The position numbers and the translations under genes are program-made. A stretch of 37,549 nucleotides of DNA. Origin: Solirubrobacterales bacterium (GTDB taxonomy: Bacteria; Actinomycetota; Thermoleophilia; Solirubrobacterales; 70-9). The notes beneath the pieces are model-generated. The model worked only from the letters and a program-made list of their open reading frames with translations, was not told the DNA's origin and searched no databases. The stretch's first letter is position 1; every line of letters begins with the position of its first letter. Below, in pieces: positions 16,405 through 33,429 of this stretch. The stretch spans positions 1 through 37,549 of the forward strand of contig DATCBF010000178.1 in the NCBI GenBank assembly GCA_036512025.1. Reading direction: 5' to 3'.

Positions 16405-16452
16405 AAGAACACCTCCGTCCTTGGTTGAGCGGCCACCTTAGCTGACTCAACA

Positions 16453-16783: not shown

Positions 16784-17074
16784 CTAGCTCCCCGTCCTGT
16801 TGTGGCGAAGGATCTCGTATTTACGCCAGTTCTGAGGTGTCGGGAGTCCCGCCTCCTGCGCCTTGGGTCGAACCGCAGCGGCCACCTTCTCCATGCCCTC
16901 CTCGTTCTCCCAGACGTTGACGATCAAAACGCCGTCCTCGGTCTTGAGCATGTAGTTGGCGAGCCCACCGTTTTCTTCGGCGAGAGGATTGGCGATCGGT
17001 TCGATCGTCTCGGCGTGGTCGGCAAGAATTTTGTCCGTGTCGCCATGAATCTCGAACATCGTGAGGATGGCCAT
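16784..17074 (-). CDS. Small ABM/dimeric alpha-beta-barrel-like protein
   Basis: 96 aa from the ATG at 17074 (MAILTMFEIHGD...VWENEEGMEKV), the size and pattern of antibiotic-biosynthesis-monooxygenase-like domains. The assignment is weak. Confidence 0.45.
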   Translation of the reverse strand: MAILTMFEIHGDTDKILADHAETIEPIANPLAEENGGLANYMLKTEDGVLIVNVWENEEGMEKVAAAVRPKAQEAGLPTPQNWRKYEILRHNRTGS

Positions 17075-17319
17075 CGGGCGCTTCCTTTCGTTGGACGGCA
17101 GCAAGGTGCCGGTGAAATCAACTTAGACCTGGCCGTGGGCCTTCGCAAGGGTCTAGATGACCCGTCTGCCAGCGGCGGAGCCGTTCAGGATCTACCTGTG
17201 ACGGGCAGACCGTGGCCGACAGAGGCCACCGCATTGATGACGATCTGCGATCTGCCTTCGAAGTCCTCAGCGCGCTGAGCAGGCCGTCCCCGCAAAGACG
17301 GCGCCCCGACGTCACCCGT

Positions 17320-18744: not shown

Positions 18745-18830
18745 GTGTCCTCCCTGCTACCGATGGACGAGTCAGGATTAATTAAGCGCCTCTGAGTAGA
18801 GGAACTTACATCAAGGAGTCTGCGCTTCGA

Positions 18831-19505
18831 TCAGGGAGTCAGGAAGACGTTGGTGAAGGCGGGAACGATCTTCTTCGCCAATGCCTTGTAGGTGGCGTGG
18901 CTGGGGTCTGCGCTATTGACAGTCAGCACGACGATCGCACTGGCATCCCCGCCGTCGCCCACCTCGTAGAAGCCGACGTTTCGGTCCTTGTTGCCAAGCC
19001 AGTCCGTCCTGTGCAGGAAGGAGGCGAAACTCGGGCTGGTGAAACTGGCGCCACCGAGGACTTTGCGGTCTGTCGCCAGCCCCTTGGCCCAGGTCAACGC
19101 CGCGACGGTCGGGTCCCAGTTTTCACCCTCCCCTCCCACTTCGTCGTCGCGGACTTCGGTCGTGACGACGACGTTCCCAAGCCCCGCGGGCACCGGCTTC
19201 TTGGCGCTCCGCAGCTGCTTCAGCAGGGCATTGCTCGGTTTCTGGTTGTAGCCGAAGAACTGGCATTCGGACTGATCGGCGCCGTTGACCGTGTGGTCTT
19301 CCGGCGACGGCGCCGTCGGGCTGACAGCGGCAGCGTGAGAGGTGACGTGGGTGACGCCGAGGGCCTTCTTCACGACCGACTGAGCCACCAGCTCGCAGGC
19401 GAGGCTGTTGTCGGGAGACGCCATGGCGATGGGCGCCGCCACCGCGGTGGGCAAGAGCAACCCGATAACGAGAGACACAAGCCGAGCTGAGCGCATTCCA
19501 GCCAC
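18831..19505 (-). CDS. Secreted hypothetical protein
   Basis: 224 aa with signal peptide RLVSLVIGLLLPTAVAAPIAMA. Start is GTG at 19505 or ATG at 19496. No recognisable family. Confidence 0.55.
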   Translation of the reverse strand: MAGMRSARLVSLVIGLLLPTAVAAPIAMASPDNSLACELVAQSVVKKALGVTHVTSHAAAVSPTAPSPEDHTVNGADQSECQFFGYNQKPSNALLKQLRSAKKPVPAGLGNVVVTTEVRDDEVGGEGENWDPTVAALTWAKGLATDRKVLGGASFTSPSFASFLHRTDWLGNKDRNVGFYEVGDGGDASAIVVLTVNSADPSHATYKALAKKIVPAFTNVFLTP

Positions 19506-19534
19506 GACCCCAGTCTAAGGGCCCGATCGTACAG

Positions 19535-20179
19535 TCAGCGCCGCTCGGCGTGTGCGATCAGCGCGGCGCAGGCCTCGAGCGCTTCGAGGTGTGGCGTTTC
19601 GTCCTCGGGGACGCCGGCGAGAATCTCGACCTCGGCGCCCTCGAAGAGGCTGCCGATGAGCGTGGCGAGGACGCGTGGGGGCATCGGCAGCTCGACGCCG
19701 CGCTCGGCCTGGAGGCGCTCAAGGCGCGCCTCAATGAGCTCGCGCCAGCTGCGCTGGGTGGCACGCCAGCGCTCGGCGAGCTCAGGGTCGGCGAGCCCGG
19801 CAGCCCATAGCTCCCAGAGGATCCGCACATAGCCGGAGTGGATGTCCTCGCGCAGGTAATCGCAGGCGGTGCGCCACTGGTCGGCAAACGCCCGGCCGTC
19901 GTTGAACATCGCCTGCTGGCGATGGAGCAGACGCTCGGTGAGGTCCTCGAGAACGGCGAGAAGCAAGCCGCGCTTGGAGCCGAAGTGGTAGTGGACCAGC
20001 GAGAGTCGCGCGCCGGCGCGGTCGGCGACGGCGCGCGTCGAGGTCGCGGCATAGCCCTCCTGGCGCAGCAGGTCGCCGGCGGCAGCGAGTAGCAACGCCC
20101 GCGTCGATTGGCCCTGCGCGAGGCGGAGGTCCCCGCTCGGCGCCGGCGTCTCAGGTTCGTCGCGGTCGGGAGCTGACAT
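19535..20179 (-). CDS. TetR-family transcriptional regulator
   Basis: GYAATSTRAVADRAGARLSLVHYHFGSKRGLLLAVLE is a canonical TetR N-terminal HTH. Confidence 0.9.
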   Translation of the reverse strand: MSAPDRDEPETPAPSGDLRLAQGQSTRALLLAAAGDLLRQEGYAATSTRAVADRAGARLSLVHYHFGSKRGLLLAVLEDLTERLLHRQQAMFNDGRAFADQWRTACDYLREDIHSGYVRILWELWAAGLADPELAERWRATQRSWRELIEARLERLQAERGVELPMPPRVLATLIGSLFEGAEVEILAGVPEDETPHLEALEACAALIAHAERR

Positions 20180-20203
20180 CGGGCCGTAGTATATATTTAA
20201 TTG

Positions 20204-20221
20204 ATTGGTCGCCCGACCAAT
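20204..20221. promoter_or_regulatory. Candidate TetR operator: perfect 8-2-8 inverted repeat in the divergent promoter region
   Basis: ATTGGTCG-CC-CGACCAAT sits in an AT-rich patch, 25 nt from the tetR start and 51 nt from the fusion-gene start. Confidence 0.5.
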
Positions 20222-20271
20222 TCATTCTAAGACAACGCAACCCACCGACAGATCGTCGAGCAGAGAGACGG

Positions 20272-22452
20272 ATGAGCATCACCGAGCAGGTCACCGCCGA
20301 GCAGGCCGATACGGGTGAGCAGACCCGAGCGCGCTACCCGGATGAACAGGGCTACATCGAGCGCGACGGCGTGCGCGTCTTCTACGAGGTCTACGGCGCC
20401 GGCGAGCCGACGATCTTGTTCTGCCCGACATGGACGCTCGTGCACTCGCGGGTGTGGAAGATGCAGATCCCCTACCTCGCCCGCCATCACCGTGTGGTCG
20501 TCTTCGATCCGCGCGGCAACGGCAAGAGCGACCGGCCCGGCGCCGTCGAGGCCTACGCCGAGTCGGAGTTCGCTCAGGACGCGCTCGAAGTCCTCGACGC
20601 GACCGGCACCGAGCGGGCGTTCGTCGTCGGCCTCTCACGCGGCACCCAGCGCGCCCTCCTGCTCGCCGCCGAGCACCCCGAGCGGGTGCTCGGCCTGGTG
20701 CTGATCGGCCCATGGTTCCCCGCCAGCCACTCGCTTGGCGGCCTGCGCTACCGGATCATGTCCCATCCGCGGATGAAGCCGGGGTTCAGGCGCAGACCGA
20801 TATCGACACGGGGCTGGGCGAAGTTCAACGCCGTGCACTTTCGTCATGACTTCCGTGATTTCGTCGAGTGGTTCACGGCGATGGCGGCGAACGAGGCCCA
20901 TTCGACCAAGGGCTTCGACGACGTCGTCGGATGGGGCCTGGAAACCGACCCGGTCACGCTGGGCCTGACCGTGCTCGCCGATGCGGCGGCGCCGGTCACC
21001 CGCCGCGACCAGCTCGCGCTCGCCCGCCGCGTGCAGTGCCCCGTGCTCGTCATCAGCGGGACGAAGGACAAGGTGACCAGCCACGCCGACGCCAGACTGC
21101 TGGCGAAGGCGACGGGCGGAAAGCTGATGGCGATCGAGGGCGGCGACCACGTCCCGGAGGGGCGGCGCCCCGTCGCCGTGAACCTCGCGATCCGCGAGTT
21201 TGTCGACCCCTCCTTTCAGCGAGACCCCACGGTCCATCGCGCCGACGGCCGGCCCCGAGCGCTGTACGTCTCCTCCCCCATCGGCCTCGGCCATGCCCGC
21301 CGAGACACCGCGATCGCGCGCGAGCTGCGCACCCTCGTCCCGGACCTGCAGATCGATTGGCTCGCCCAGAACCCGGTGACGCGGGTGCTAGAGACAGAGG
21401 GCGAGCGCATCCATCCCGCGAGCAGGCATCTGGTCAACGAGTCGGCCCACCTCGAATCCGAGTCCGCCGCGCACGACCTGCAGTGCTTCCAGGCCATCCG
21501 GCGCATGGACGAGATCCTGACCGCCAACTACATGGTCTTCGACGACGTCGCGGGCGAGACGAGGTATGACCTGTGGATCGGCGACGAGGCCTGGGAGCTC
21601 GACTACCACCTGCACAAGAACCCCGCCCGCAAGCGCGCGCCCTTCGCCTGGCTGACGGACTTCGTCGGCTGGCTGCCGATGCCCGAGAACGGCGAGCGCG
21701 AGGCGTTCGTGGCGGCGGACTACAACGCCGAGATGGTCGAGCACATCCGCGACCACCCGGAGATCCGCGACCGGGCGATCTTCGTCGGCAACCCCGACGA
21801 CATCGTCGGCGACCGCCTCGGGCCCAACCTTCCGGGGATCCGCGAGTGGACCGAGCGCAATTTCGACTTCTCCGGCTACATCACCGGCTTCGACCGGGCC
21901 GAGCTGCGAGACCGCGAGCGGCTGCGCGCCGAGCTCGGCTACCAGCCGCACGAGCGTGTCTGCCTGGTCACGGTCGGCGGCTCGGGCGTGGGCGCGGACC
22001 TGCTGCGACGGGTCATGGCGGCCTTCCCCGCCGCATCGAAACTCGTTCCCGAGCTGCGGATGATCGTCGTCGCCGGGCCGCGCATCGACCCGGCGACGCT
22101 GCCCGCCGCCGCCGGCCTGGAGGTGCGCGCCTACGTCGACGACCTCTACCGCCACCTCGCCGCCTGCGACCTCGCCGTAGTCCAGGGCGGGCTGACGACC
22201 ACCATGGAGCTGACCGCCGCACAGCGGCCATTCCTCTATTTCCCCCTGCGCCACCACTTCGAGCAGCGCTTTCACGTCGCCCACCGGCTCGACCGCTACC
22301 GAGCCGGCCGCCGGATGGACTTCGACCAGGCCGGCCCTAACGTCATCGCCGAGGCGATCGCCGAGGAGATCGGCCGCGACGTCGACTACCGCCCGGTGGA
22401 AACGGACGGCGCCCGCCTGGCGGCACAACGCATCGCAGAGCTACTCAACTAA
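20272..22452 (+). CDS. Fusion protein: N-terminal alpha/beta hydrolase plus C-terminal GT-B glycosyltransferase (GT1/GT28, MGT/MurG-like)
   Basis: N-terminal half has a GLSRG nucleophile elbow, HRVVVFDPRGNGKSD and GGDHVP. C-terminal half has SSPIGLGHARRDTAIAREL, GGSGVG and QGGLTTTMELTAAQRPFLYFPL..HFEQ. Confidence 0.8.
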   Translation: MSITEQVTAEQADTGEQTRARYPDEQGYIERDGVRVFYEVYGAGEPTILFCPTWTLVHSRVWKMQIPYLARHHRVVVFDPRGNGKSDRPGAVEAYAESEFAQDALEVLDATGTERAFVVGLSRGTQRALLLAAEHPERVLGLVLIGPWFPASHSLGGLRYRIMSHPRMKPGFRRRPISTRGWAKFNAVHFRHDFRDFVEWFTAMAANEAHSTKGFDDVVGWGLETDPVTLGLTVLADAAAPVTRRDQLALARRVQCPVLVISGTKDKVTSHADARLLAKATGGKLMAIEGGDHVPEGRRPVAVNLAIREFVDPSFQRDPTVHRADGRPRALYVSSPIGLGHARRDTAIARELRTLVPDLQIDWLAQNPVTRVLETEGERIHPASRHLVNESAHLESESAAHDLQCFQAIRRMDEILTANYMVFDDVAGETRYDLWIGDEAWELDYHLHKNPARKRAPFAWLTDFVGWLPMPENGEREAFVAADYNAEMVEHIRDHPEIRDRAIFVGNPDDIVGDRLGPNLPGIREWTERNFDFSGYITGFDRAELRDRERLRAELGYQPHERVCLVTVGGSGVGADLLRRVMAAFPAASKLVPELRMIVVAGPRIDPATLPAAAGLEVRAYVDDLYRHLAACDLAVVQGGLTTTMELTAAQRPFLYFPLRHHFEQRFHVAHRLDRYRAGRRMDFDQAGPNVIAEAIAEEIGRDVDYRPVETDGARLAAQRIAELLN

Positions 22453-22589
22453 CAGGAGGAGGACACACCATGCGATCCATCCCACGTGAGGACGTCCCGG
22501 TCGTCATCGACACCTAGAGCAACCAGGATAGTTACCCACGATGCGCTCCTCTCAATTAGGACTGCCATAGCCTATAGATGGGCTCGCCC

Positions 22590-23102
22590 TCAAGGGTGCA
22601 GCCGCCCTCGCTTTCGATGTCGACCGAAACGTAGGAAAGATAAGGTAACGCCTTCCGCCCGCATCGCCAGAAAGCCACCTAAGACGATACCGAGAGAGGC
22701 AACGAGGGCGAAGAAGATGCCGCCCTTAAGTGTCGGTTCGATCAAGAAGCCTTCCGGGAGTTCCCTCGAGCCGGGCGGGGAAACCATCCGAGTCAGGATC
22801 AAGAGCGACGCGAGGCAGCCAAACACGGTCACCGCCGCGTTAGCGGGGACCGCCGGCTTCCAATCAAAGCCGGCGAGGCGCATGAGCACCGACCCAAGCG
22901 CGACAGCGATCGCTAACACCAAAAAGATCGGGATCACTTCGAGCGTCTGCCAGGCATTGCCGCCGCCGAAGGGAACAAACCGCACGAGCAAATTCCCCAA
23001 GTTCCCTTTGACGTCAAACCACTCAAAGAACATGGAGATGAAGAGCAGGATCGCCGAAGCGCCGGCGATCGTCTCGCCATATTTGAGCCTATTTAGGTCC
23101 AT
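22590..23102 (-). CDS. Four-TM membrane protein, unknown function
   Basis: 170 aa from the ATG at 23102 (MDLNRLKYGE...) with an AGGTGA SD and four hydrophobic segments. Lower G+C than the backbone. Confidence 0.55.
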   Translation of the reverse strand: MDLNRLKYGETIAGASAILLFISMFFEWFDVKGNLGNLLVRFVPFGGGNAWQTLEVIPIFLVLAIAVALGSVLMRLAGFDWKPAVPANAAVTVFGCLASLLILTRMVSPPGSRELPEGFLIEPTLKGGIFFALVASLGIVLGGFLAMRAEGVTLSFLRFGRHRKRGRLHP

Positions 23103-23227
23103 ATGCCGCTCACCTTTCTGGCCAAACACGAGCGCAGCGAGAATACGCCCCGTGGTCGCTCCTTGGCCGAAACTTGCACCCGCAACAGGGGCGTGCTTAG
23201 CGTTCCTGCCTGTAGGTTCACCGAACC

Positions 23228-23758
23228 TCACCCATCCTGCTTGAGGCTAAGGGGCCGCATCAACGGATCATCAAGGATCCCCGGGACTACGTTCGGAGGC
23301 ATCCTATATGGATGGAGTAACGGCTCTACCAAGGTTTCGGATCCTCGTTCAGCCACTACGACCTCAGACGCATTTCGCGACTGATATTCGGGCGACCATA
23401 CGGGCGCACCGCTGTCACCGTGGGCGGGCGGCTCGTTGAATTCAACCCAATATCCCCCTCTGGCAATCCCATCGCTTGCCCCGATCCAGCGCGTCGAGCG
23501 AGCAACGACGGGACCGCACTGAGGCACTGTCGTCTTGGCGCCGGAATAGCAGAGATAATTGCCTATTCTCGCTTTTCCCGCCTGCCCGACGGGTATTAGG
23601 TGTCCCTCTAATCCGTATATATCCTGAGGAACGATGCCAGCGTCCTCGACTCGAATCGCCTCCGCATCGGTGCGCTCCGATGACGTACTTTCTACGGATG
23701 CGATGTCGTTTCCGGGTGCTTGCGCTTCTGGATGAAGCAGTAGTGCTTTGGCTTGCAT
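23228..23758 (-). CDS. S1 (chymotrypsin-fold, streptogrisin/alpha-lytic-like) protease C-terminal half only; probable truncated paralog
   Basis: AIRVEDAGIVPQ and HGDSGAPVW (Asp and Ser regions) are present, but no TAGHC His region. The in-frame upstream extension overlaps the neighbouring gene and shows no homology. Confidence 0.5.
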   Translation of the reverse strand: MQAKALLLHPEAQAPGNDIASVESTSSERTDAEAIRVEDAGIVPQDIYGLEGHLIPVGQAGKARIGNYLCYSGAKTTVPQCGPVVARSTRWIGASDGIARGGYWVEFNEPPAHGDSGAPVWSPEYQSRNASEVVVAERGSETLVEPLLHPYRMPPNVVPGILDDPLMRPLSLKQDG

Positions 23759-23847
23759 TGACGCAGCAACATTCTTAGCCCCAACCGGGATGGCGGACGC
23801 CGGGGACACACTCGGTTGTCCTGAACGAAGTCTTGACGTCAGTTGTT

Positions 23848-24336
23848 CTAGTGCACCCGGAACTCGGCCATAAGGTTCATTGACTTGGTTTTCAGCTTCG
23901 GCGCGACTTTCTTCGACACCCGATAGAGGCCGGGTGCGGCCTGGCTTGGAATGTCGATCCCCTGACAGGCGCTTGCCGTCCCGGCACGCACGAAAGATCG
24001 TGATTTGAAAAATGGCCCGGTCCGCTGCTTGACCCAAGATCCACCTTCCCATCGCGCAAGCTCGTATGCGAGTCCATATACAACATCTTCCGTGCCGAGA
24101 TCTTCTACGCGCACGCGCAGCTGACCACCAGGCCTGACGCTTCCCCGGTCAACTCCCAAGCGCACCTTGAAAGGAGGCGGGACGGCTACCACATCGATGC
24201 TCGGCTCACTGCAGAAGCCACCTCCTCCGCTTGCAAGGAGGCCTCGGCTGGCTGCAACCGAAAACGAGACGTTGCATGACGCCACGAAGACAAATGCAAG
24301 AGCCGCAACCCTGACCGATCGAATACGTAGCTTCAT
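23848..24336 (-). CDS. Secreted beta-sandwich-like protein (possible protease-inhibitor-like fold)
   Basis: 162 aa with signal peptide VAALAFVFVASCNVSFSVAA and a GGGAGGAAG SD. The pattern G..LRVRVEDLG...Y.L.RW.GG.W......F...........IP..A.PG.YRV is beta-rich. Confidence 0.6.
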   Translation of the reverse strand: MKLRIRSVRVAALAFVFVASCNVSFSVAASRGLLASGGGGFCSEPSIDVVAVPPPFKVRLGVDRGSVRPGGQLRVRVEDLGTEDVVYGLAYELARWEGGSWVKQRTGPFFKSRSFVRAGTASACQGIDIPSQAAPGLYRVSKKVAPKLKTKSMNLMAEFRVH

Positions 24337-24358
24337 GGCTTCCTCCCTTACTCGTCGT

Positions 24359-25238
24359 CTACTTCCACGTAATTATATGGAGCGGTTCGCCTTCTACGCC
24401 AAGAGCAGGCAGACTGCCCTGAGCTTTAGGATAGCCCGGAATTTCCTCGACTGGAGTAAACCATGAAGAGTTTGCGATTCCCTCAGTCAAAGTCCCAACA
24501 GCATCTCCGGTAGCGCGCTCCCAGTAAGGCCTCCGCTATCCCCGGGTGCAGTCGGAATTTCGGTCCTGATCGTACAGAGAACAGGGTTTCCATTTTCGTG
24601 CTCTTCACCCCAGCGTTCACATTTGGGCGGCCATTCTGCTGGGCCGCATTTCACGTTAGGACTGTACTGCCCTGCCCGACACACCACCATTCCTTCTTTC
24701 ACGGCCGTCGCTCCATTGATCCTGCGAAACTGCGTGTCGGAATAGCGAATGAGACGCGGCACGATGCTCGGGTCTTCTACTCTAATCGCCTCACCCGCTG
24801 CCAGGCAAATTTTCCTTCCGGGGATGTTTCCCACTGCTTGACTTCGGTCCCAGGCGTAAAGCAGTGTCCTGCGGTCGTGATGAAATCCCGGTAAAGGACA
24901 CTCCCGTCGGGCCTTACTCCTCCTTTATCCCACGCACCCCAGCCAACGCTACATTCCTCTTCTGAGCGTTCGGGTTCTCCAAGGAACGTCGCGCCTAGCA
25001 TCTCGCCGGCCTTTACAGGACCGGTCGGGCTAGCCTTAATTCTCTGGAAAGACGGGCGTTCTTTCGCGGCTTCGTAGTAGACGCTAATAGGCACCCCAGC
25101 GCCGAAGTGCGATTTCACAAACCCTTCAACTTCCGTGACATTTGATGCTCCGATGTCCAGCCATGGGGACGACAATGGGGACGCCATACCTGACTCGCCG
25201 AGGAAGGGCGGTAAGACCAGGGGTGTCACCACCCGCAC
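24359..25238 (-). pseudogene. S1-family serine protease gene disrupted by two frameshifts
   Basis: ITTAGHCF is in frame 1 (ORF 24777-25238). AIRVEDPSIVPR...GDSGG is in frame 2 (ORF 24487-24834). The expected continuation PYWERATGDAVGTLTEGIANSSWFTPVEEI...TWK* is in a third frame, entered at about 24530 and ending at 24359. Confidence 0.65.
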
Positions 25239-25664
25239 TCAACCGATGCGGACAAGTAGGAGGACCCCAAGAGCGGCACCGATGACACCAAGCGACCAGA
25301 GCCAGATCCTGGCGTAGGCGCCGATGAGCCCATAGCCCCGCGGCCTTCTTCCCTTCGCGTCATCCAAATACGTGGCGTTGGCGATCTCCGCCCCCGGTCC
25401 CGGCTCCTCCTCGACTAGTGTCTCGTCCAGCAGCCGTCGGGCATCCTCGGCCTGACCTGTACGGACCATGACCCGTTGTGAGCCGGGCGGCAAGAGGCCG
25501 ATGCCTAGCAGTGGGCCATTCAGGCCAGTCGGCAGGAGAAGGCTCGGGATGCCACCGTTCTCGAGGAGGCCCTGAATCATCCCCGCCTCCGTGGGGTCGT
25601 TGGCGAAGGCGATCTTGACCAGATCGGCACCCGACAGGCCATCCGTTGTCTCGATCTTTCCCAT
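25239..25664 (-). CDS. DUF2007-like (putative signal-transducing) domain protein with a C-terminal TM anchor
   Basis: LVKIAFANDPTEAGMIQGLLENGGIPSLL...VMVRTGQAEDARRLLDE fits the DUF2007 pattern. The C-terminal helix is IWLWSLGVIGAALGVLLLV. Its stop abuts the protease pseudogene start. Confidence 0.65.
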   Translation of the reverse strand: MGKIETTDGLSGADLVKIAFANDPTEAGMIQGLLENGGIPSLLLPTGLNGPLLGIGLLPPGSQRVMVRTGQAEDARRLLDETLVEEEPGPGAEIANATYLDDAKGRRPRGYGLIGAYARIWLWSLGVIGAALGVLLLVRIG

Positions 25665-25950
25665 GGCCGCGAAGAGTAGCCGCGTATTGGCGAGAACAGA
25701 GCTTTAAAGAAGATGGACACCGACCTCCACAGTGGGGTGCCTTCACCACGGTCGTCCAGCTTCGCGCCGCCGATACGAGCCGGGCCGTCGCCGCCCTGGA
25801 CCGCAGCACCGAGACCCTGAACAAGCTGACCTGGGTGCTTGTCGTTCTCGGCCGGGGCTCACTCGTCATCGCCCTGGTCGCGCTGGTCGTCGCTCTCTAG
25901 GCCCGACCTTTGCCCACCAGTTCAGCACCGGAAATCCTGGCCATCGGTAG

Positions 25951-26154
25951 CTATCCCGCCTCAGGCCCGAGGTCGGGCTCCGTTCGCAGCGGTACAGCGA
26001 GTGGCCCGGTGGCGCCACCCACTTCGGGATCGGGATGGGCGACGAAGAGAGCTGCCTGTTCGGCGTCGGAGCGAAAGCCGGAGACGACGATCAGCGAGAG
26101 ACCGGCGCCTGTGGCCGCGGGCGCCATGCGGTCGAAGCTGCGGCCACATCGGGC
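25951..26154 (-). pseudogene. Remnant of a VanY/M15-type D-Ala-D-Ala carboxypeptidase-like gene
   Basis: On the minus strand, SFDRMAPAATGAGLSLIVVSGFRSDAEQAALF resembles the SGYRSxxxQxxL core. PKWVAPPGHSLYR is readable only in another frame, and RTEPDLGP back in the first frame. Both ends are truncated. Confidence 0.3.
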
Positions 26155-26317
26155 TCATCCCCTCACCCTGGCGGTATTTGTTTGCGGCTATTCAGATAAC
26201 CAGAATCGAAAACTGAGCCTTCAGCTTTGATCTACAGCAGGTTAGGTGACCACTACGTCGCTCAAGCCCCGAGCGTCCGGGGAAGCGCAGGAGCCATCGA
26301 TAAATGACGTTCGGTGA

Positions 26318-26704
26318 TTAAGAGATCCCTTCAACTTCAAAGTGTCGGGCACCGTAATGACATGTCACCTCACGCGGAAACTTTGAGCGCGGGTAGATCC
26401 GACAGACCCACTGCTGTGTCCGCGAATTTTCTGCAGTTGCTCGAATAGTTACTGTCTGCGTACCCACTGCACCCGATAGCACCGAAACAATCGACCCTAA
26501 TTTCACGCATGTAAGCCTGCTGGTCTCTGGTCTAATCCGGGCCTTTTCTCCGTGAACCCCCACCATACATGGACGGCTTTCCGTCGAAGATGCCACGTTC
26601 TTAGCGCATGCTAAGCCCGCAAACGCGCAACCAATCACTACAAGACCAATCAATATGAATAGATGAAATCGCACTTTTGAAGTATAGCCTCTCGTAAACA
26701 CCAT
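26318..26704 (-). CDS. Small Cys-containing secreted hypothetical protein
   Basis: ATG at 26704 shares one nt with the upstream TAA (TAATG). Signal-like helix FHLFILIGLVVIGCAFAGLACA. Low G+C. Confidence 0.45.
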   Translation of the reverse strand: MVFTRGYTSKVRFHLFILIGLVVIGCAFAGLACAKNVASSTESRPCMVGVHGEKARIRPETSRLTCVKLGSIVSVLSGAVGTQTVTIRATAENSRTQQWVCRIYPRSKFPREVTCHYGARHFEVEGIS

Positions 26705-27060
26705 TAGTAGAAATCTTTCGGCGAAAGACCGACCTCCGACCATCGCGTCTCCTTGGAAACGGTGCCACTGCTCAGCAGTGTGTTTAGATCCTTGAGACTT
26801 CTGGGTCCACGAGCGGCGACGAAATCGAATGCTGCGGCAAGGCCAGTAGACCGGCTCCCGTTCGTAGAGCCGACAACACCGAGTCTATGGCCCTGGTCGA
26901 CGAGCCCGAGGAGCGTCGGCATGACTAAAGCCAGGTTCACCAGTCCCGCAGCGTTGATGACGGCGGTTAACGTTCCCGGGCGCAGCTCAAGCCCGGTTGA
27001 GACCTGGGACTGGATTGGGTAGGCCATTGCCTCGAAGCTAGCGAGAGCATCGGTGGGCAA
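26704..27060 (-). CDS. Hypothetical protein
   Basis: 118-aa ORF, translationally coupled to the downstream gene. No recognisable motif. Confidence 0.35.
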   Translation of the reverse strand: MPTDALASFEAMAYPIQSQVSTGLELRPGTLTAVINAAGLVNLALVMPTLLGLVDQGHRLGVVGSTNGSRSTGLAAAFDFVAARGPRSLKDLNTLLSSGTVSKETRWSEVGLSPKDFY

Positions 27061-27139
27061 ACAGCGCCAAGCGGTCGCAAGGTGCGGGATTCGGCACTGC
27101 CGAAATTGAAGGTTGTGAGAATCGCGTCTAGCCGAGGCC

Positions 27140-27170
27140 GTGGGGACAGCCGTGGGGACGGCATGGGGAC
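27140..27170 (+). repeat. Three closely spaced rTGGGGAC motifs
   Basis: GTGGGGACagccGTGGGGACggcATGGGGAC. The 19-mer at 27142-27160 recurs at 27307-27325 with one mismatch. Confidence 0.7.
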
Positions 27171-27182
27171 CAAACTGGCCCC

Positions 27183-27202
27183 TTATGACCCCCTATGACC
27201 CC
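27183..27202 (+). repeat. Tandem 10-bp direct repeat yTATGACCCC x2 (GGGGTCATA on the minus strand)
   Basis: TTATGACCCC then CTATGACCCC, immediately left of the displaced sufT-like 3' end. Confidence 0.7.
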
Positions 27203-27213
27203 GCAATCCCTGC

Positions 27214-27264
27214 CTAGAAGCCGAGTGCGAACTTGGCGTCGTCGGTCATCATCGCTGCGGACAA
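27214..27264 (-). repeat. Displaced duplicate of the 3' end of the DUF59/SufT gene (att-like core)
   Basis: The minus strand reads (stop)LSAAMMTDDAKFALGF(stop). The last 12 codons encode the same peptide as 33115-33150, and every nucleotide difference in them is synonymous. Confidence 0.75.
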
Positions 27265-27306
27265 CTACGTGAAAGCCCCTGCAAACACCACATTGTTTCC
27301 GTGCGC

Positions 27307-27325
27307 GGGGACAGCCATGGGGACG
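27307..27325 (+). repeat. Second copy of the GGGGACAGCCrTGGGGACG 19-mer
   Basis: 18/19 identical to 27142-27160. It lies on the other side of the sufT-like remnant. Confidence 0.7.
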
Positions 27326-27358
27326 AAGAGTCGCCTAACTCCCGGTTTGCACCGACTC

Positions 27359-28108
27359 CTAGGCTTTTGCTTCGTGAGTCTGCATCAAGAACAGGGCCAT
27401 CGAGCCGGCTAGATTGACCGCAAGGGCTGCATGTCGAGCGGCTGGCCTATATCCGCTTCGCCCGGGACCGTGGGAATCCGAGACACGATTGCGCAGGCTG
27501 CCGATTTCTCTGACGACTGTGGTGCATGCTCCTAGAATCGCTTTGAACTGCTCCTCGGTGTGGTCGCTCGGAGCAAGATTGAGGGTGACTGAAACCACCC
27601 GGTAGAGAGCGGGGAGGTCGTCGCGCTCGCGATACGAGACTTTGCGATCGTCGAGAATCGTCTTGCAGACCGACTCAAGCAGAGTCCGCGCCGACGTGAC
27701 AGCTCCGTCGGGATCGGCCTGTCGGCGCTCGAGGGCCTTATCCCAGGCCTGTTCGATCGAAACCGCATTGATCGCCACCGCCCTCTCGAAAACCAAGGCA
27801 TCCAGCGGGGAATCATCGGCGACCTCAAGCGCCGCTAGCAAGGGCTCGAACTCCTCGCGCAGGAACTTGCGGCGCGACTCGTAACTCGGAAGCTCTGGAT
27901 CGCAGCCCTTGATATAGCTCCAAACGGCATCTGGCTCGCGGCAGATCCGGACGCATTGCGGAGCAATCCGCTTGCCGGTCGAGTCAGCGAGTACAACCCG
28001 TCGGGCTCCAGCGAAGTCATGCTTGCTGACCTCGCCACCGTCGGTGACTCGGGCAATCATGTATTGGAGCAGCTCACTTGCAGCCTCGAAGGTCTCGTGG
28101 TCGGCCAT
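27359..28108 (-). CDS. Abi_C-domain (abortive-infection C-terminal, HEPN-type) protein
   Basis: The C-terminal half ARTLLESVCKTILDD...ILGACTTVVREIGSLRNRVSDSHG...AARHAALAVNLAGSMALFL matches the Abi_C pattern and contains an Rx4-6H motif (RNRVSDSH). I prefer the ATG at 28108; a TTG at 28129 is an alternative. Confidence 0.7.
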   Translation of the reverse strand: MADHETFEAASELLQYMIARVTDGGEVSKHDFAGARRVVLADSTGKRIAPQCVRICREPDAVWSYIKGCDPELPSYESRRKFLREEFEPLLAALEVADDSPLDALVFERAVAINAVSIEQAWDKALERRQADPDGAVTSARTLLESVCKTILDDRKVSYRERDDLPALYRVVSVTLNLAPSDHTEEQFKAILGACTTVVREIGSLRNRVSDSHGPGRSGYRPAARHAALAVNLAGSMALFLMQTHEAKA

Positions 28109-28166
28109 CGTCGGGGCGAATCTTGCCAAAGTGCCGAAGCCTCAAGTGGATTCCGAAGGCGCGAAC

Positions 28167-28185
28167 TGCGCTCAATTGCAGCGCA
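28167..28185. promoter_or_regulatory. Inverted repeat in the Abi_C / CBASS divergent intergenic region
   Basis: TGCGCT-caattgc-AGCGCA. A related CTGCAATT(T)G motif recurs at about 28254 in the opposite orientation. Confidence 0.25.
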
Positions 28186-28416
28186 TACAAGCCTGGAGTC
28201 GCTATCCAGGCCCGCGCTGAATGGGATGACTGTCAATCCGACCGCGAAAACCCTGCAATTTGCGGCGCTAGGGGTGAGCATTACCGTCCGCTCACAATGA
28301 GACCGTCGCTGTCTTCACAAAAATACCGGTGATTGCAACTACCAATACGAGACCATACCCATGAGATATGACAGAAAAGTGAGCCTCTCGACGCGAACCG
28401 GCCCGGCGGTGGGCTG

Positions 28417-29592
28417 ATGGCTTCACCGCTCTTCCTTAGCTACGGCTGGAGTGACGGATCGCCGCCTCCTGTTGTCGAGGAGCTAGATCGCCTGCTGCAA
28501 CTGCGGGGGGTGCCGATGTGGAGGGACCTGCGCGATCTCGGCGCCGGCGGACTGAACGAGGAGGTTGCCGGAGCGGCAATCCGCGAGGAGTGCTGCGGCT
28601 GCATTCTCCACTTCACCGAGCAGATTCTCGACTCTTGGTTCATCGGAAGCGTCGAGCTGGAGGCGGTCCGCCATCGGCTCGACCGTGATGAGGACTTCTT
28701 CCTCGCCGCAGTCTTCGACGGGGTTGGCAAAGAGCAGATCGAGTCGCTTGAAAAGGAGGCCAGCCTCAATCTACGCGCTTTTCAGGGGCTCTTCCTCGAT
28801 TCGACCAAGGACATCGGCGAGCAGCTCGAGGGCTTCTCGAGTCAGCTGCTGCGCCGCTACCTGGAGGGCATAGACATTGAGCAGCCGACGGCCCGGGTCG
28901 ACAGCTGGGGCCGAATCCCTTGGAAGGATGCAGCTCCGATCCAGCTCAACTGGGCCGGTGAGGACGACGGGGATGGCCAGCTCCCGGCCGATTGGGACGC
29001 GCTCAAGCGGGCAGTCACGGATCTTCGTGCGGCCCTTGGGGAGCTGACGACGGAGCGCGTGCTCCGTCTGAATGGCACTATCCACCTGTCTGCGGCATTC
29101 CTGATCGGCTGGGAGTTTCGCGAGACCACCGGTTGGACTATCGAGGCCGATCATCCGCGAGCGGGGGTGACCGTTACGACAATGCGGCCCGACCCTCAGG
29201 GCTGGACGATTACGCCCCTGCCCTCGCAGAACGACTCGGGCTCAGTCATTGTCCGCGTCTGCGCCAGCGCCGACTGCTCACATGCAGTGCGCGCCCATCT
29301 CGCAGAGATGGATCGGGCCCGCGCGGAACTGGCCGTGTTTCCTCCCGGCGGTAAGACCGGCCGCTTCAGCGTCGACGATTTCGACCTCAACGGCCTTGCC
29401 ACCGCGATCATCGCCGCGGTCCGCAGCTGCCGAGAGCGTTATGGAGTCGAGGTGACCAAGCTCTACCTCGCCTCCCCCTGGACCCTGGCGCTGACTCTCG
29501 GCTGGAACTTCGCCAGCAGCGGCACGCTTGTTGTGTACGAGGCAACGGCTGACAAGTCCACCTACCACCCCACTCCACTTCAACTTCCCTGA
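28417..29592 (+). CDS. TIR-SAVED effector (N-terminal TIR-like domain, C-terminal SAVED-like cyclic-oligonucleotide sensor)
   Basis: N-terminus LFLSYGWSD...ILHFTEQILDSWFIGSVELEAV is TIR-like. The C-terminal ~240 aa contains two CARF-like half-repeats (LNGTIHLSAAFLIGWEF... and LYLASPWTLALTLGWNF...VVYE). It lies first in an operon with a CD-NTase. Confidence 0.75.
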   Translation: MASPLFLSYGWSDGSPPPVVEELDRLLQLRGVPMWRDLRDLGAGGLNEEVAGAAIREECCGCILHFTEQILDSWFIGSVELEAVRHRLDRDEDFFLAAVFDGVGKEQIESLEKEASLNLRAFQGLFLDSTKDIGEQLEGFSSQLLRRYLEGIDIEQPTARVDSWGRIPWKDAAPIQLNWAGEDDGDGQLPADWDALKRAVTDLRAALGELTTERVLRLNGTIHLSAAFLIGWEFRETTGWTIEADHPRAGVTVTTMRPDPQGWTITPLPSQNDSGSVIVRVCASADCSHAVRAHLAEMDRARAELAVFPPGGKTGRFSVDDFDLNGLATAIIAAVRSCRERYGVEVTKLYLASPWTLALTLGWNFASSGTLVVYEATADKSTYHPTPLQLP

Positions 29593-29602
29593 GGAGCCCA
29601 AA

Positions 29603-30607
29603 TTGTCACTAGAGGACGCTTTTCACAACCTGCAGGAAGAGGTCAACGCCGATCCCGTCCAAGTTGAAGAGGCTCGCGGCCGGCGCGAAATGTTCCAGGC
29701 CGCCTTCGCAGGAGAGCCGGACGGCGTCAACTCGGTGCCCAGCGGGTCTCTCGCACGCGGCAGCCAGATCGAACCGATCAATGACGTCGACCTGCTCTGG
29801 GTCTACCAGCCGAGTTCCTGTGCCGACTGGACCCCTGAGGATGCGCTGGAGCACACCAGGGAGCGGATCAAGGAGTTGCTCGGGTCGGAGTCGGCACTTG
29901 TCGAACTCTTCGGCGAGCAAGGTCGCAGCATGCGCTGGGTCCGCGAAACGCGCCTGCAGAACCATGCCGTCAAGTGCTTCCTCGATGACCCCGAAGACGA
30001 GGACGCATTCACGGTCGACGTCGTCCCGGCGCTGGCACGCGACCCCCGCGGCTTCTGGATTCCCGAGAAAAGCAGCGCCAGCTGGATCGAGACCGACCCG
30101 GTGCTCCTGATCGAACGGGTGCTGGAGCGCCACGGTGGCTATGGAGAGGGTCAGTTCGTGCAGTTGATCCGCGTGCTGAAGCGCTGGTCCAAGGACAATT
30201 CGCGGGTGATCAAGGGTCTAGCGATCGAGGTACTCGCCCTCGATCACCTGCCAGACGCCGAGCGCCAGGTCGCGCTGGCCCGATTCTTCGAGGGTGCTCT
30301 CAACCACATCCGCGAGCCGATCCTCGACCCGGCGAGACTCTGTGGCGAAGTGCAGCCCGACCTCGACCGCGACCGAGCCGAGGATCTCCTGAGAAAGGCG
30401 GCGGACCTGTCAGCAAGAGCCGTGGTCGCCGACCAGAGGGGCAAAATCGAGGACGCCCAGTGCTTATGGCGCGAACTCTTCGGTGAGATCTTCCCCGAGC
30501 CCCCCGGCGGCTGCGCCAAGGAGAGCGACGGCAACGGGGTCAAGGCTACCGCCACCGCCAGCGCCCTCGGCAGCCGCAGGCGTGTGCAGCGGGTTGAAGA
30601 GGGATGA
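29603..30607 (+). CDS. CD-NTase / SMODS cyclic-oligonucleotide synthase
   Basis: PSGSLARGSQIEPINDVDLL (GS...DxD), FTVDVVPA (third acidic residue), WIETDP and LIRVLKRWSK are present. TTG start at 29603 has a GAGGAG SD. The protein ends in ...RVQRVEEG. Confidence 0.8.
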   Translation: MSLEDAFHNLQEEVNADPVQVEEARGRREMFQAAFAGEPDGVNSVPSGSLARGSQIEPINDVDLLWVYQPSSCADWTPEDALEHTRERIKELLGSESALVELFGEQGRSMRWVRETRLQNHAVKCFLDDPEDEDAFTVDVVPALARDPRGFWIPEKSSASWIETDPVLLIERVLERHGGYGEGQFVQLIRVLKRWSKDNSRVIKGLAIEVLALDHLPDAERQVALARFFEGALNHIREPILDPARLCGEVQPDLDRDRAEDLLRKAADLSARAVVADQRGKIEDAQCLWRELFGEIFPEPPGGCAKESDGNGVKATATASALGSRRRVQRVEEG

Positions 30608-30608
30608 A

Positions 30609-31118
30609 ATGGAGCGCACTCCAATCTCATGGATCGAGGCTGAGCCCGATCGCGTCGAACTCGAGAAACGCGAAATGGCCGATCGCGCTCCCGAGATGGC
30701 ATGGCGTGAAGGCGAGGATCTGCCCAGCGGAGGCTTCGAGGGCCTGGCACCTGAGTGGCCATTTGACCGTGACCCGCCTGAGAAGCTCGACAGGCTGACC
30801 GAGGGCAAGCAGCTCTCGGTGCAGGTCCGCTTCTTCGAGGGCTACCCGGCCCAACCACCCCGGCTCTTCGCGCTCGATCCCGAACCCTCGGTCGAGGAGC
30901 GCCTGCGCGAGGAAGTCCACGTCAATGGCGACGGCTCGATCTGCCTGATCCTCCACCCAAGCGACTGGAGCAGCAGCGAATGCGCAGTCGAGCTCGTGAC
31001 CAAGGCGTCGGGCTGGTTCCTCGAGTACCTCGCGGTAGGACGCGGGCTGATCGAGGCTATGAGCCCGGCCGGGATGTTTGCAAACACCGAGCTTGACGCC
31101 AAGATCGAAGAGCTATGA
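30609..31118 (+). CDS. Stand-alone E2 (UBC-like) protein, Cap2 E2-domain equivalent
   Basis: FFEGYPAQPPRLFAL...HVNGDGSICL is the UBC-fold YPxxPP plus HxN...G.ICL catalytic-Cys motif. It starts 2 nt after the CD-NTase stop. Confidence 0.8.
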   Translation: MERTPISWIEAEPDRVELEKREMADRAPEMAWREGEDLPSGGFEGLAPEWPFDRDPPEKLDRLTEGKQLSVQVRFFEGYPAQPPRLFALDPEPSVEERLREEVHVNGDGSICLILHPSDWSSSECAVELVTKASGWFLEYLAVGRGLIEAMSPAGMFANTELDAKIEEL

Positions 31119-32455
31119 CCCGCGAGCTGCTGCTGATTACGGCCGAGACCGCCCAGAGGATCGCGGCAAGCGGTGCCAAGTGGGGCCATCTCGGCCTCGC
31201 CGTCAACGTCCCCGAAGAGATCTACCATGTGGTCAGCTGGTCGGTGAAGGGACACACCCACTCCCCAGCCACCGAGGGCTGGAGCGAGCACACCGCGGGC
31301 CACTCGTTCAAGGGCGGCGACGGTAACGCACTCTGGTATCGGGGCACATACGAGCTGCACGACCGTGGCCGCCACGACTCGGTAAGAGGGCAGGCGACCC
31401 CCATCTCCATCATGCAAGAACAGGTCGAGGGGGACTGGCTGACCTTCAAGCGGCTCCTCCTCATGATCACCTTCTGCGAGCGCGACGGACGCACCGAATG
31501 GGCCGCCTGGAAGCGTTCCGGCGAGGATTCCTTTTGGCCAATCGATATCGAGATCTTCGACCACGAGGCCGATCTACTAGCACCATTGGGAGGGGCCTGG
31601 CCCCGTGAGGCTCTCTCCGAGAAGCTCGTCACCGTGGTCGGCGTGGGCAGCGTAGGCGGCGCAGCCTGTGAGGCGATGGCGGCCTATGGCATCCGTAGGT
31701 TCGCCCTCGTCGATGAAGACCGCCTGCTCTCTAGGAACTTCGCCCGCCACCGGGCAACCCGACGTGATCACGGCAGGTTCAAGGTCGATTCGGTCGCCGA
31801 TCTCCTGAAAGAGCGCGACCCCTTGATCGAGGTTGAGGCGCTTCGCGCCAACGTCGCTTTCGACGCCAACACGATTCGGCCGCTCCTCGCCAAAAGCGAC
31901 CTCGTGGCCTGTTTCACCGACGGGCCGGAGAGCCGCAGGGTCGTCAACCATCTCGCCTTCCGTGCGCGCCGGCCAGCCGTGTTCGGCTGCGTCTTGGACT
32001 TCGGGAGCTACGGCGAGACGCTCGTGTTGCGGCCAGGTTGGACGGGCTGCCTCGAGTGCAATCGAGTTTCGCTGCGCGAGAGCATGGAGCTCGAGCTCGG
32101 GCTCGAGTACTCAGAGATTCAGGAACGGCTGGCGCCAACCGACGGTCAACATTTCGGCATGACACGGGCCTTCAGCCACTACGGAGTCGACCCCGGGGTG
32201 CTCGGCACAACCGCGGTCGGCGGCGACCTCCATTTGGTCGGCGGGTTCTCGGCAAAGGCGGCAGTGGCAATGCTGCTGCGAAGTGCGGGCTACCGCGAGC
32301 AGCGACTTCCGGGTAGCCATGCCCTGATCGGCCTACGCCCTCCGGTGATCGCCGATCCTGAACCCTTTAACCGCGTCGGACGGGTCGGTGAGGTGGCATG
32401 GCTGCCGACCGCCTCACCCCGGCCGGAGTGCCGTACATGCGGGGACGGAACATGA
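31115..32455 (+). CDS. E1-like (ThiF/MoeB adenylation fold) protein with a ~170-aa N-terminal domain, Cap2 E1 equivalent
   Basis: VVGVGSVGGAACEAMAAYGIRRFALVDEDRL is a Rossmann/ThiF motif. CxxC pairs are CLECN and CRTCG. ATGA overlap with the E2 gene. Confidence 0.8.
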   Translation: MTRELLLITAETAQRIAASGAKWGHLGLAVNVPEEIYHVVSWSVKGHTHSPATEGWSEHTAGHSFKGGDGNALWYRGTYELHDRGRHDSVRGQATPISIMQEQVEGDWLTFKRLLLMITFCERDGRTEWAAWKRSGEDSFWPIDIEIFDHEADLLAPLGGAWPREALSEKLVTVVGVGSVGGAACEAMAAYGIRRFALVDEDRLLSRNFARHRATRRDHGRFKVDSVADLLKERDPLIEVEALRANVAFDANTIRPLLAKSDLVACFTDGPESRRVVNHLAFRARRPAVFGCVLDFGSYGETLVLRPGWTGCLECNRVSLRESMELELGLEYSEIQERLAPTDGQHFGMTRAFSHYGVDPGVLGTTAVGGDLHLVGGFSAKAAVAMLLRSAGYREQRLPGSHALIGLRPPVIADPEPFNRVGRVGEVAWLPTASPRPECRTCGDGT

Positions 32456-32976
32456 GCGGCGCGGTCGTGATCTCGGAGCGAGTGATGGATGAAGTCCGCA
32501 ATATGGCGCGTGATTCAGAAGATGGCAGCGAGACGGGCGGAATCCTGCTCGGCTTCGAGGAGATTGACGGCAGCTTCTGGGTGACCGAGGCGGGCGGGCC
32601 GGGGCCCCTGGCCGAGCGCTCCCCGACCTACTTCTGCCGGGATCTCGACCACGCCGAGGTGATCGCCGAGCGAGCGTTTTCGATCGACGGCTCTCAGTGG
32701 GTAGGCGATTGGCACACCCATCCCGGCGGCCCCAACGCCCTCAGCCACGTTGATCTGCGCAGCTACCGGGAGGTTCTCGTCAACAGCGACCTCGAGGTCT
32801 TTCTGGCAATCCTTCTCCGCCCCGGCCTCAAGGGCTGGCAGCAGCCGCGCGCCACAGCCTTTGCGGTCAGCGCCTCCCGGGTTCAGCCGATCCGGATCAT
32901 CGACCTCCTGGGTGGGCGCCTGTTGAATCGCGGGATCGGCACCTCTCGCGACGATCACATTAGCCCGCGAACCTGA
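32452..32976 (+). CDS. cap3: JAB/JAMM metalloprotease (Cap3-like)
   Basis: SETGGILLG plus an exact JAMM motif HTHPGGPNALSHVD (HxHx7Sx2D). ATGA overlap with the E1 gene. Confidence 0.85.
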   Translation: MSGAVVISERVMDEVRNMARDSEDGSETGGILLGFEEIDGSFWVTEAGGPGPLAERSPTYFCRDLDHAEVIAERAFSIDGSQWVGDWHTHPGGPNALSHVDLRSYREVLVNSDLEVFLAILLRPGLKGWQQPRATAFAVSASRVQPIRIIDLLGGRLLNRGIGTSRDDHISPRT

Positions 32977-33024
32977 TCCCAGGGCAGCAAGGTGAAACGA
33001 GGCCGATCCCGGAGTCGTATCCAG

Positions 33025-33046
33025 ACGAGTTGAAAGCGTTACTCGT
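33025..33046 (+). terminator. Possible stem-loop after the JAB gene
   Basis: ACGAGT-tgaaagcgtt-ACTCGT. An alternative pairing is CGAGTT/AACTCG. No U-tract. Confidence 0.25.
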
Positions 33047-33111
33047 GAGAACTCGGTTGATGACACCGGCACGACCCCACGATGCATCTCTAGGAACCCC
33101 GCCTCTAGCGC

Positions 33112-33429
33112 TTAGAAGCCCAAGGCGAACTTCGCATCATCCGTCATCATCTCCGGCGACCAGGCTGGGTCGAAGACCATCTTCGGATGGACCGCGTCGA
33201 CTCCCTCGAGGTCGCCGACGAACTCTTTCATCTGCTCGGAGACCTGGGGGCCGATCGGGCAGGCGGGGGTCGTGAGGGTGAAGGTGACGTAGACGTCGGC
33301 TCCCTCGATCTCGACGTCGTAGACGAGGCCGAGGGAGACGAAGTCAAGCCCCAGCTCGGGATCGATGACCTCCTCCAGCGCCTCGATCACGTCATCTTCG
33401 GTCAGCACGGCGGTTGTGTTCTCAGTCAT
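33112..33429 (-). CDS. sufT: DUF59 / SufT-like (MIP18 family) Fe-S assembly protein
   Basis: 105 aa with VIEALEEVIDPELGLDFVSLGLVYDV...TLTTPACP, the DUF59 signature. Confidence 0.85.
   Translation of the reverse strand: MTENTTAVLTEDDVIEALEEVIDPELGLDFVSLGLVYDVEIEGADVYVTFTLTTPACPIGPQVSEQMKEFVGDLEGVDAVHPKMVFDPAWSPEMMTDDAKFALGF

Follow-up and report, generated by a model that had tools for sequence, protein, structure and literature searches.

The integrative and conjugative elements (ICEs), integrative and mobilizable elements (IMEs), and cis-mobilizable elements (CIMEs) of bacteria form tandems for which a definition of the CIME and a scenario of integration, decay, and accretion have been set out (PMC5704250). 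In the ICESt1/ICESt3-related elements at the fda gene of Streptococcus thermophilus, a tyrosine recombinase integrates the element at the 3' end of the gene and rebuilds that end, and the fda CIMEs have decayed to integrase-less remnants flanked by attachment (att) sites, with later accretion into a remnant's att site and tandem arrays that contain internal attP-like junctions (PMC5704250). Defense systems, in turn, are described as cargo of integrated mobile elements and as residents of defense-island hotspots (PMC10201445, PMC10121019). Here, we analyze a stretch of 37,549 nucleotides (nt) from an uncultured soil Solirubrobacterales bacterium (assembly GCA_036512025.1, contig DATCBF010000178.1, positions 1 to 37,549 of the forward strand), referred to below as the window, in which the end of a sufT-like gene occurs twice and brackets a 5.9-kb islet holding a cyclic-oligonucleotide-based antiphage signaling system (CBASS) and an AbiJ-like abortive-infection gene. 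The locus resembles fda in these respects, although the attL arm of its remnant is missing or replaced, and its CBASS and Abi genes sit, as in defense-island hotspots, in the variable cargo region of an integrative element, at a hotspot that recurs. We consider it likely that the islet is an integrase-less, CIME-like remnant within the tandem wreck of at least two insertions at the attB site of sufT.

The sufT-like gene (33112..33429, minus strand; DUF59/FeS_assembly_P, Pfam PF01883, E=1.4e-22; 105 amino acids, aa) is intact, and its final 12 codons come from one of two repeat copies, which we call cores. Copy B, fused to the gene, consists of 12 codons and TAA (33112..33150, minus strand; read from 33150 to 33112, ATGATGACGGATGATGCGAAGTTCGCCTTGGGCTTCTAA), and copy A (27214..27252, minus strand; read from 27252 to 27214, ATGATGACCGACGACGCCAAGTTCGCACTCGGCTTCTAG) is displaced to the other end of the islet. 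Both translate to MMTDDAKFALGF followed by a stop codon, as an initial annotation made from the sequence alone had reported. That annotation had also counted eight synonymous differences in 36 nt; all are indeed synonymous, but they number seven of 36 coding nt, or eight of 39 nt when the stops (TAG in A, TAA in B) are included. Its observation that similarity runs past the stops holds, with ACCCCGC in register 10 nt beyond both (27197-27203 and 33095-33101). The cores are direct repeats 5898 nt apart, and 27212-27262 agrees in register with 33110-33160 at 39 of 51 nt, as against 33 of 51 for the best unrelated 51-mer in an identity scan of the whole window on both strands. The in-frame homology of copy A to sufT ends just upstream of ATGATG, where the preceding frame reads ...T*LSAA, so copy A is not the tail of a longer sufT paralog; the six-frame peptide scan and the 51-mer scan found no third core and no longer sufT paralog in the window. 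Inverted repeats occur within the core (GCCAAG-N6-CTTGGC) and around ATGATGA; these are possible core-type integrase sites, a role that we do not claim for them.

The same repeat recurs in relatives, in keeping with the proposal of the initial annotation that the two copies are att duplications left by site-specific integration into the sufT 3' end. The relatives are 80 species-representative genomes retrieved with the SufT protein, nearly all of them metagenome-assembled genomes (MAGs) of Solirubrobacterales, and 168 fetched loci (L numbers) were compared in all. The upstream neighbors of sufT (GNAT, HAD, and two small genes) are syntenic in 36-73 of the 80 relatives, and none of the window genes downstream of sufT lies within 10 kb of sufT in any of the 80. 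Two to three same-orientation cores follow sufT in 9 of the 80, spaced 0.57-9.7 kb, with the sufT homology beginning at the E|MM codon boundary in all nine; this 12-codon boundary recurs in more than 20 independent arrays when metagenome contigs are included.

Conserved arms flank the core on either side. The L arm (27253..27350, minus strand; nhmmer E=1e-21 to 3.5e-23), the P arm of the att site, contains in the window two RTCCCCA repeats 12 nt apart, then TTTGCAGG and ~25 nt before the core, and its consensus is two RTCCCCA repeats, GATTTGCAGG, ~25 nt, and the core. It precedes the distal core in five genome loci (L012, L023, L038, L066, and the window), and a search of metagenome contigs for the pattern of L arm and core yielded 74 contigs, 65 of them non-redundant, in which the RTCCCCA repeats stand at fixed positions -72 and -60 and the spacer measures 25 nt at 50 of the 65 sites. 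The R arm (27135..27213, minus strand, 79 nt; nhmmer E=2e-22 to 6e-24), the P' arm of an IME, is laid out as three GGGGTCA repeats followed by three GTCCCCA repeats, with a consensus of ~79 nt that reads TAG-GCAsGGwTTGCGGGGTCA..GGGGGTCA..GGGGTCAGTTyTGTCCCCATsCCGTCCCCACGGctGTCCCCACGG. The arm is complete downstream of sufT in 22 relatives and partial in eight more. Nine R-bearing genomes encode a tyrosine integrase on the opposite strand ~0.5-4.4 kb from the sufT stop, and downstream of the integrase lie a TrwC/MobF relaxase in L064 and a type IV coupling protein in L026. Among the metagenome contigs, eight carry L arm and core directly on the native FxsA tail, which is an attR; six show L-core-R junctions; and 12 of the 74 contain complete arrays, some of them minimal R..int..L forms with frameshifted integrases. 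From this distribution of the arms, all DNA between two cores, R and L included, is element DNA, and attP is L-core-R. The cognate recombinase for which the initial annotation had suggested a search can thus be named as a family from relatives, a tyrosine integrase of about 377-388 aa where intact (L168, L064, L026, and L009 encode one), beside a MobF relaxase; the window itself encodes no such integrase.

Set against these data, the idea that the repeat is a chance similarity or the remnant of a duplicated sufT paralog, unrelated to mobile DNA, has a negligible likelihood. The shortness of the repeat is the one thing in its favor; the margin of the in-register match over the best chance match, the shared peptide with its stop, the in-frame sequence upstream of copy A, and the recurrence of one boundary in array after array, with conserved arms on both sides of the core, refute it.

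Some sites in the relatives depart from the common pattern. In L018 (11227-11340), the L arm is followed by a core truncated after about GCCAAGTTC, and in L030 (18849-18960) by a core truncated after GACGC-AAG; both breaks adjoin the GCCAAG-N6-CTTGGC inverted repeat, and the truncated cores could be deletion products or integrations into secondary sites. In L055 (10277-10890), the sufT core lacks a stop, apparently through a 1-nt insertion near its end, and a second core 572 nt downstream closes a 121-aa open reading frame (ORF); either an assembly error or a true exchange of termini could account for this arrangement.

Empty sites define what the native locus looks like. In seven genomes (L002, L005, L016, L032, L056, L011, and L022), FxsA ends 3-83 nt past the sufT stop, and none of the seven has an R arm. 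The corresponding native flank of the window, recognized by Pfam and by tblastx/tblastn synteny, comprises FxsA (14533-15018, plus strand) and an IspH/LytB fusion (12029-14371, minus strand). Since the empty sites join sufT to FxsA, the extra DNA is the whole of 15019-33111 (18 kb), part of which has a lower GC content than the flanks, and not just the 5.9-kb islet. This result bears directly on the simplest account, in which a single integrase-less satellite entered a virgin sufT, copy A is the original host terminus, and everything to the left of 27214 is host DNA. The initial annotation had taken copy A and its left-hand DNA in this sense and had predicted an empty site in which sufT runs straight into the DNA left of 27214. 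Of the two copies, A has the typical form of a sufT terminus and B an atypical one, and in some 22 relatives sufT is indeed followed by that DNA, but these sites are occupied: the DNA is the R arm, it represents the attL of an element, and it is missing from all seven empty sites. An integrase lies close by in the nine relatives described above, the R arm lies inside the two cores of a complete element (L168, below), the FxsA/IspH flank begins 12 kb further on, and the sufT-side end of the islet is probably a deletion scar rather than an att arm. We therefore regard a single satellite as very unlikely. Two findings that the initial annotation had listed as possible signs against integration did not materialize: empty-site alleles exist, with the nearest relative (L083) lacking the islet, and the frame before copy A is not that of a decayed paralog.

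A complete relative of the islet shows where its parts belong. AbiJ proteins of at least 90% identity served as the route to L088, L097, and L166-L168, of which L168 (European Nucleotide Archive ERZ25039542, contig_4351) holds one complete element of 15.6 kb. Starting from sufT, it comprises the core, the R arm, three genes of unknown function, an integrase (388 aa), TrwC/MobF (1041 aa), DUF433/PIN, three helix-turn-helix (HTH) genes, CBASS, AbiJ, L arm, and core; a type IV secretion system is not visible. Window positions 27209-32940 are 88.8% identical in nucleotide sequence to the cargo end of L168, and the two R arms are 92.6% identical. An attP rebuilt from L168, with the L arm from attR and the core and R arm from attL, matches window 27124-27373 at 220 of 253 positions. 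AbiJ is 93% identical in L088, L097, and L168, and the same L arm adjoins it each time. In L097, different cargo, comprising unknown genes and a restriction-modification gene of the MmeI type, precedes the module, and core-R comes after it, whereas in L088 the homology ends exactly at the core and the flank beyond is different; overall, the CBASS-AbiJ-L module is present in at least four different flanks. Other cargo in the same position includes the MmeI-like restriction-modification gene in L097 and PIN toxin-antitoxin genes in L012 and L168, and in L089 and L091 the CBASS operon lies in other contexts. On the strength of the L168, L097, and L088 comparisons, CBASS-AbiJ-L is the terminal cargo module of this sufT-targeting IME family, and copy A, a core of typical type, lies in an attP-type (tandem) junction between the L arm of the islet and the R arm of another element copy. 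The islet as one discrete element, which the initial annotation had envisaged, is not borne out by the comparison: only 27209-32940 is common to related elements, and the 161 nt next to core B have no relatives.

The core that now ends sufT is the foreign one. The sufT termini of L023, L052, and L058 match copy A exactly, that of L083 is 1 nt from it, and the median distance of copy A to the termini of the 80 relatives is 3; copy B is an outlier, with a minimum Hamming distance of 5 and a median of 8, and its codons ACG GAT GAT GCG are present in only 1-4 of the 80 termini. L083, the nearest islet-free relative, has an identical SufT protein, a flank of ~90% nucleotide identity, and an A-type terminus, and 7 of the 16 differences between the window and L083 in sufT fall within the last 31 nt (Fisher p=4e-4). 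The divergence switches between sufT nt 265 and 287, that is, at window 33143-33165, and a crossover is predicted in or beside GAGATGATGAC. Judged by its outlying terminus among the 80 relatives and by the clustering of the L083 differences at the gene end, copy B came from incoming DNA, in agreement with the initial annotation. The codon-usage argument offered there points in the right direction but is weak, with a GC content at third codon positions of 0.88 in the sufT body, against 0.83 in copy B and 0.92 in copy A. No second example of a B-type terminus traveling with the islet was found through JAB homologs. A few other cores (L028 10289-10327, L098 6382-6420, and L131) share the rare ACG GAT GAT signature of copy B, each adjoining R-like or L arms, which suggests a minor att-core variant circulating with some elements.

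On the sufT side, the islet has an unusual boundary. L168, L097, and L089 are homologous to the window as far as 32940-32950, and between this point and core B lies segment Y (32951..33111, minus strand), 161 nt of window-specific DNA. Relatives' JAB proteins end in ...LDLLxGxC*, whereas the window JAB lacks that stop and reads 17 codons further into Y. Among the 168 loci, Y has no homolog outside the same-strain contigs L081 and L082, the R-arm profile gives no match to it as a diverged R arm, and the Y-bounded version of the islet is known from one strain only, as 100%-identical contigs. The boundary is probably a deletion scar that clipped the JAB stop codon.

This boundary weighs on the question of whether the islet is dead or alive. 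The unit formed by core B, Y, CBASS, AbiJ, and the L arm might be a functional cassette, mobilizable in cis or in trans and moved by resident IME integrases. Most short two-core arrays lack an intact integrase (L012, L018, L023, L038, L043, L060, L066, L106, L117, and others), the L arm is highly conserved at the 65 non-redundant metagenome sites, CBASS-AbiJ-L recurs in its several flanks, and in other bacteria CIMEs have been documented to move along with ICEs (PMC5704250), all of which fits such a cassette. We nonetheless think it unlikely, as no R-type arm is present beside core B, 8 of 39 positions distinguish the two cores, the islet in its Y-bounded form was seen in a single strain only, the module elsewhere (L168 and L097) is cargo of a larger element rather than a free cassette, and the clipped JAB stop points to decay. 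In a broader form of the same idea, the sufT end would be an exchange platform at which integrase-less modules retaining just an L arm and a core, many of them carrying defense or toxin-antitoxin genes, are routinely captured, stacked, and passed on by the integrases of IMEs, whether resident or incoming; if so, the CBASS-AbiJ islet would be an active cassette and not a dead remnant, but we give this only a small chance. That the islet is still mobilizable in trans seems to us similarly doubtful. The pair of options in the initial annotation, a decayed element or a satellite, was the right one for an islet without a recombinase, and the evidence favors decay.

The remnant reading, to which we return, can be laid out as a sequence of events that we infer from the parts left in place. 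The attB site is the last 12 codons and the stop of sufT, together with flanks of ~10 and 20 nt, and it serves a family of integrative mobilizable or conjugative elements of Solirubrobacterales with a tyrosine integrase, a MobF/TrwC relaxase, and an attP made of L arm, core, and R arm. Integration would recombine at the upstream edge of the core, such that the synonymous 12 codons of the element become the new sufT end and the previous end is displaced to the far side, beside the L arm. At least two insertions of this sufT-targeting family would have come to lie in tandem. Element 1, of the L168 type, would survive through its cargo end, consisting of the type II CBASS with TIR-SAVED, AbiJ, and the L arm, and element 2 through its R arm alone, its body being gone. 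Deletions would have removed the integrase and relaxase backbones, with one endpoint clipping the JAB stop and leaving 161 nt of orphan DNA beside core B. The end state would be core B with its orphan stub, CBASS-AbiJ-L, core A, a lone R arm, and a 12-kb mosaic without a terminal core, in which any mobility of the islet would need a related integrase supplied in trans.

Several points weigh against this history. Core B borders the orphan segment Y and not an R arm, which makes the attL side of the islet atypical; core B may be a trace of a third element or of a divergent subfamily. The window has no third core at the far end of the second element. No relative offers a true isogenic empty site, the closest islet-free genome, L083, being just ~90% identical in the flank, and the crossover is bounded only to window 33143-33165 rather than mapped. 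The immobility of the islet is something we infer, and no circular junction or other excision product was observed. Finally, the array could have arrived ready-made: the whole tandem might have been built in another lineage and imported by homologous recombination across the sufT and FxsA/IspH flanks instead of being assembled in this one. The flanks are conserved across the order, which would permit homologous replacement, and the region is a mosaic of several GC levels. There is no direct counter-evidence to such an import, which would change the place of the events and not the nature of the repeats; the sharp synonymous divergence from the core onward is more in line with a crossover at the att core than with one at a random position in the gene, and we hold import to be quite improbable.

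The cargo itself, called with Pfam and PADLOC models, looks intact at the level of its defense genes. The AbiJ-like abortive-infection protein (27359..28129, minus strand; Pfam Abi_C E=4e-17, PADLOC AbiJ E=5.5e-22) is encoded by the final gene ahead of the L arm. It is followed on the plus strand by a type II CBASS operon at 28417-32976, in which all the genes that define the class are present: a TIR-SAVED effector (28417..29592; Pfam SAVED E=4e-16 and a weak TIR_2 match, PADLOC SAVED_TIR E=3e-33), the CD-NTase, or CBASS cyclase (29528..30607; Pfam SMODS, PADLOC cyclase E=1.5e-96), an E2-like protein (30609..31118; PADLOC E2 E=2e-51, called as a 169-aa gene at this position in L081 and L082), a ThiF-like E1 (31115..32455; Pfam ThiF E=9e-26, PADLOC E1-E2 models E=3e-88), and a Cap3-like JAB deubiquitinase with an altered C-terminus, as seen by alignment (32398..32976; Pfam Prok-JAB, PADLOC JAB E=4e-40). 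Because JAB homologs are ~157 aa long, the true start of this gene is probably near 32450-32500. Rather than forming one Cap2 fusion, E2 and E1 are encoded separately, and the stop of the first overlaps the start of the second (ATGA); relatives show the same split, and PADLOC holds dedicated models for both the split and the fused form.

Only AbiJ homologs of at least 90% identity are tied to the sufT att site. A general tie between AbiJ homologs and this site was considered and rejected, as P0003, P0004, and P0010 lie in unrelated contexts without arms, and more distant homologs (~70% identity; L084, L085, and L087) sit outside the sufT hotspot. Each of these three is preceded by a co-oriented gene of 111-116 aa without a Pfam match, possibly encoding a partner protein, and no clear counterpart was found upstream of the window AbiJ.

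The absence of an integrase from the islet, already noted by the initial annotation, is borne out: Pfam and tblastn with relatives' integrases detect no integrase or recombinase between 27214 and 33150 or anywhere in 15019-33111. In the window, tblastn finds no TrwC homolog and no other L168 backbone protein, and the larger ORFs give no Pfam match to a relaxase or coupling protein. As to tRNA genes, which that annotation had also found lacking, ARAGORN calls a 93-nt tRNA-Gly(TCC) at 22339-22431 (minus strand) inside a 726-aa ORF (20272-22452). Rfam detects no RNA family in the window, so this call is unsupported and, with Rfam seeing no tRNA at that position, probably a false positive.

Between the R arm and the conserved flank lie the remaining 12 kb (15019..27134), a non-syntenic and partly low-GC segment with no integrase and no third core. 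It encodes two paralogous ArsR-like HTH proteins (15067-15732 and 15793-16404), a 474-aa unknown, a TetR protein, a 726-aa hydrolase-glycosyltransferase fusion, a Big_14 protein, DUF2007, and unknowns. Weak homologs of the ArsR-like pair recur in the same hotspot in L001, L007, L017, and L064. A further pair of RTCCCCA arm-type repeats occurs at 25159-25194 (minus strand; nhmmer E=4e-5) in L/R-arm orientation and with no adjacent core; it lies just downstream of the DUF2007 gene, an 83%-identical homolog of which is found between the last core and FxsA in L124, and the repeats may be a trace of another decayed element end. In the IspH/LytB fusion of the native flank, the IspH/LytB domain takes up residues 470-745 of a 780-aa protein whose long N-terminal part has no Pfam match, and the fusion is conserved in relatives.

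Taken as a whole, the locus is a well-resolved integration hotspot in a poorly studied, mostly uncultured soil order, and its target is not a tRNA gene but the end of sufT, a gene of an essential pathway. Some 100 natural sites define the att architecture (L arm, 39-nt coding core, and R arm), and in Solirubrobacterales MAGs the L-core and core-R signatures offer a way of delimiting such islands. The locus also provides a concrete case of defense systems (CBASS, AbiJ, restriction-modification, and toxin-antitoxin) that travel as cargo and are stranded when the element decays, and the integrase with its att pair is a candidate genetic tool for the order. Both the mechanism and the pattern of evolution are textbook matter for integrative elements; the host and the target gene are new, and no new mechanism is revealed. 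In a limited search of the searchable literature, neither the use of sufT/DUF59 as an att site nor this element family turned up in any report, and the apparent literature matches to DUF59 were to DUF5906 and irrelevant.

Of the known classes, two bear little likeness to the islet. A prophage or phage satellite was rejected, as no phage-related domains appear among the genes scanned; the L-core pattern gives no match in IMG/VR, and the att region has none in a phage collection or in PLSDB. An integron array shares with the locus only the successive insertion, at one site, of modules that lack an integrase and are each bounded by a recombination site. Unlike integrons, the locus has no attC-like folded site, its integrase is carried by the incoming element rather than beside the platform, and its modules are multigenic; an integron was rejected, with GNAT, HAD, and unknowns but no integrase among the upstream neighbors and with sites of the L-core-R type instead of attC.

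The ICE and IME classes come closer. The window has the direct att repeats of such elements, and it has neither an integrase of its own nor a relaxase or mating apparatus. L168, with its tyrosine integrase, TrwC/MobF relaxase, cargo, and att repeats, fits an IME with MobF, whereas the window copy has lost the integrase and relaxase and is thus not itself an IME. As for the CIME, the islet lacks a recombinase and is related to an IME, through the 88.8% identity to the cargo end of L168; its attR side (L arm and core A) is canonical, and its attL side has core B with no detectable R-type arm. The fit to a full CIME is therefore partial, the attL arm of the remnant being missing or replaced, and no mobilization was observed. 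The locus further differs from the fda CIMEs in its target, sufT/DUF59, in its host, and in its arm sequences, which are new. Compared with the hotspots described in PMC10201445 and PMC10121019, finally, the recombination sites that deliver defense genes to this locus are resolved to the nucleotide and lie at the end of a protein-coding gene, not a tRNA gene.

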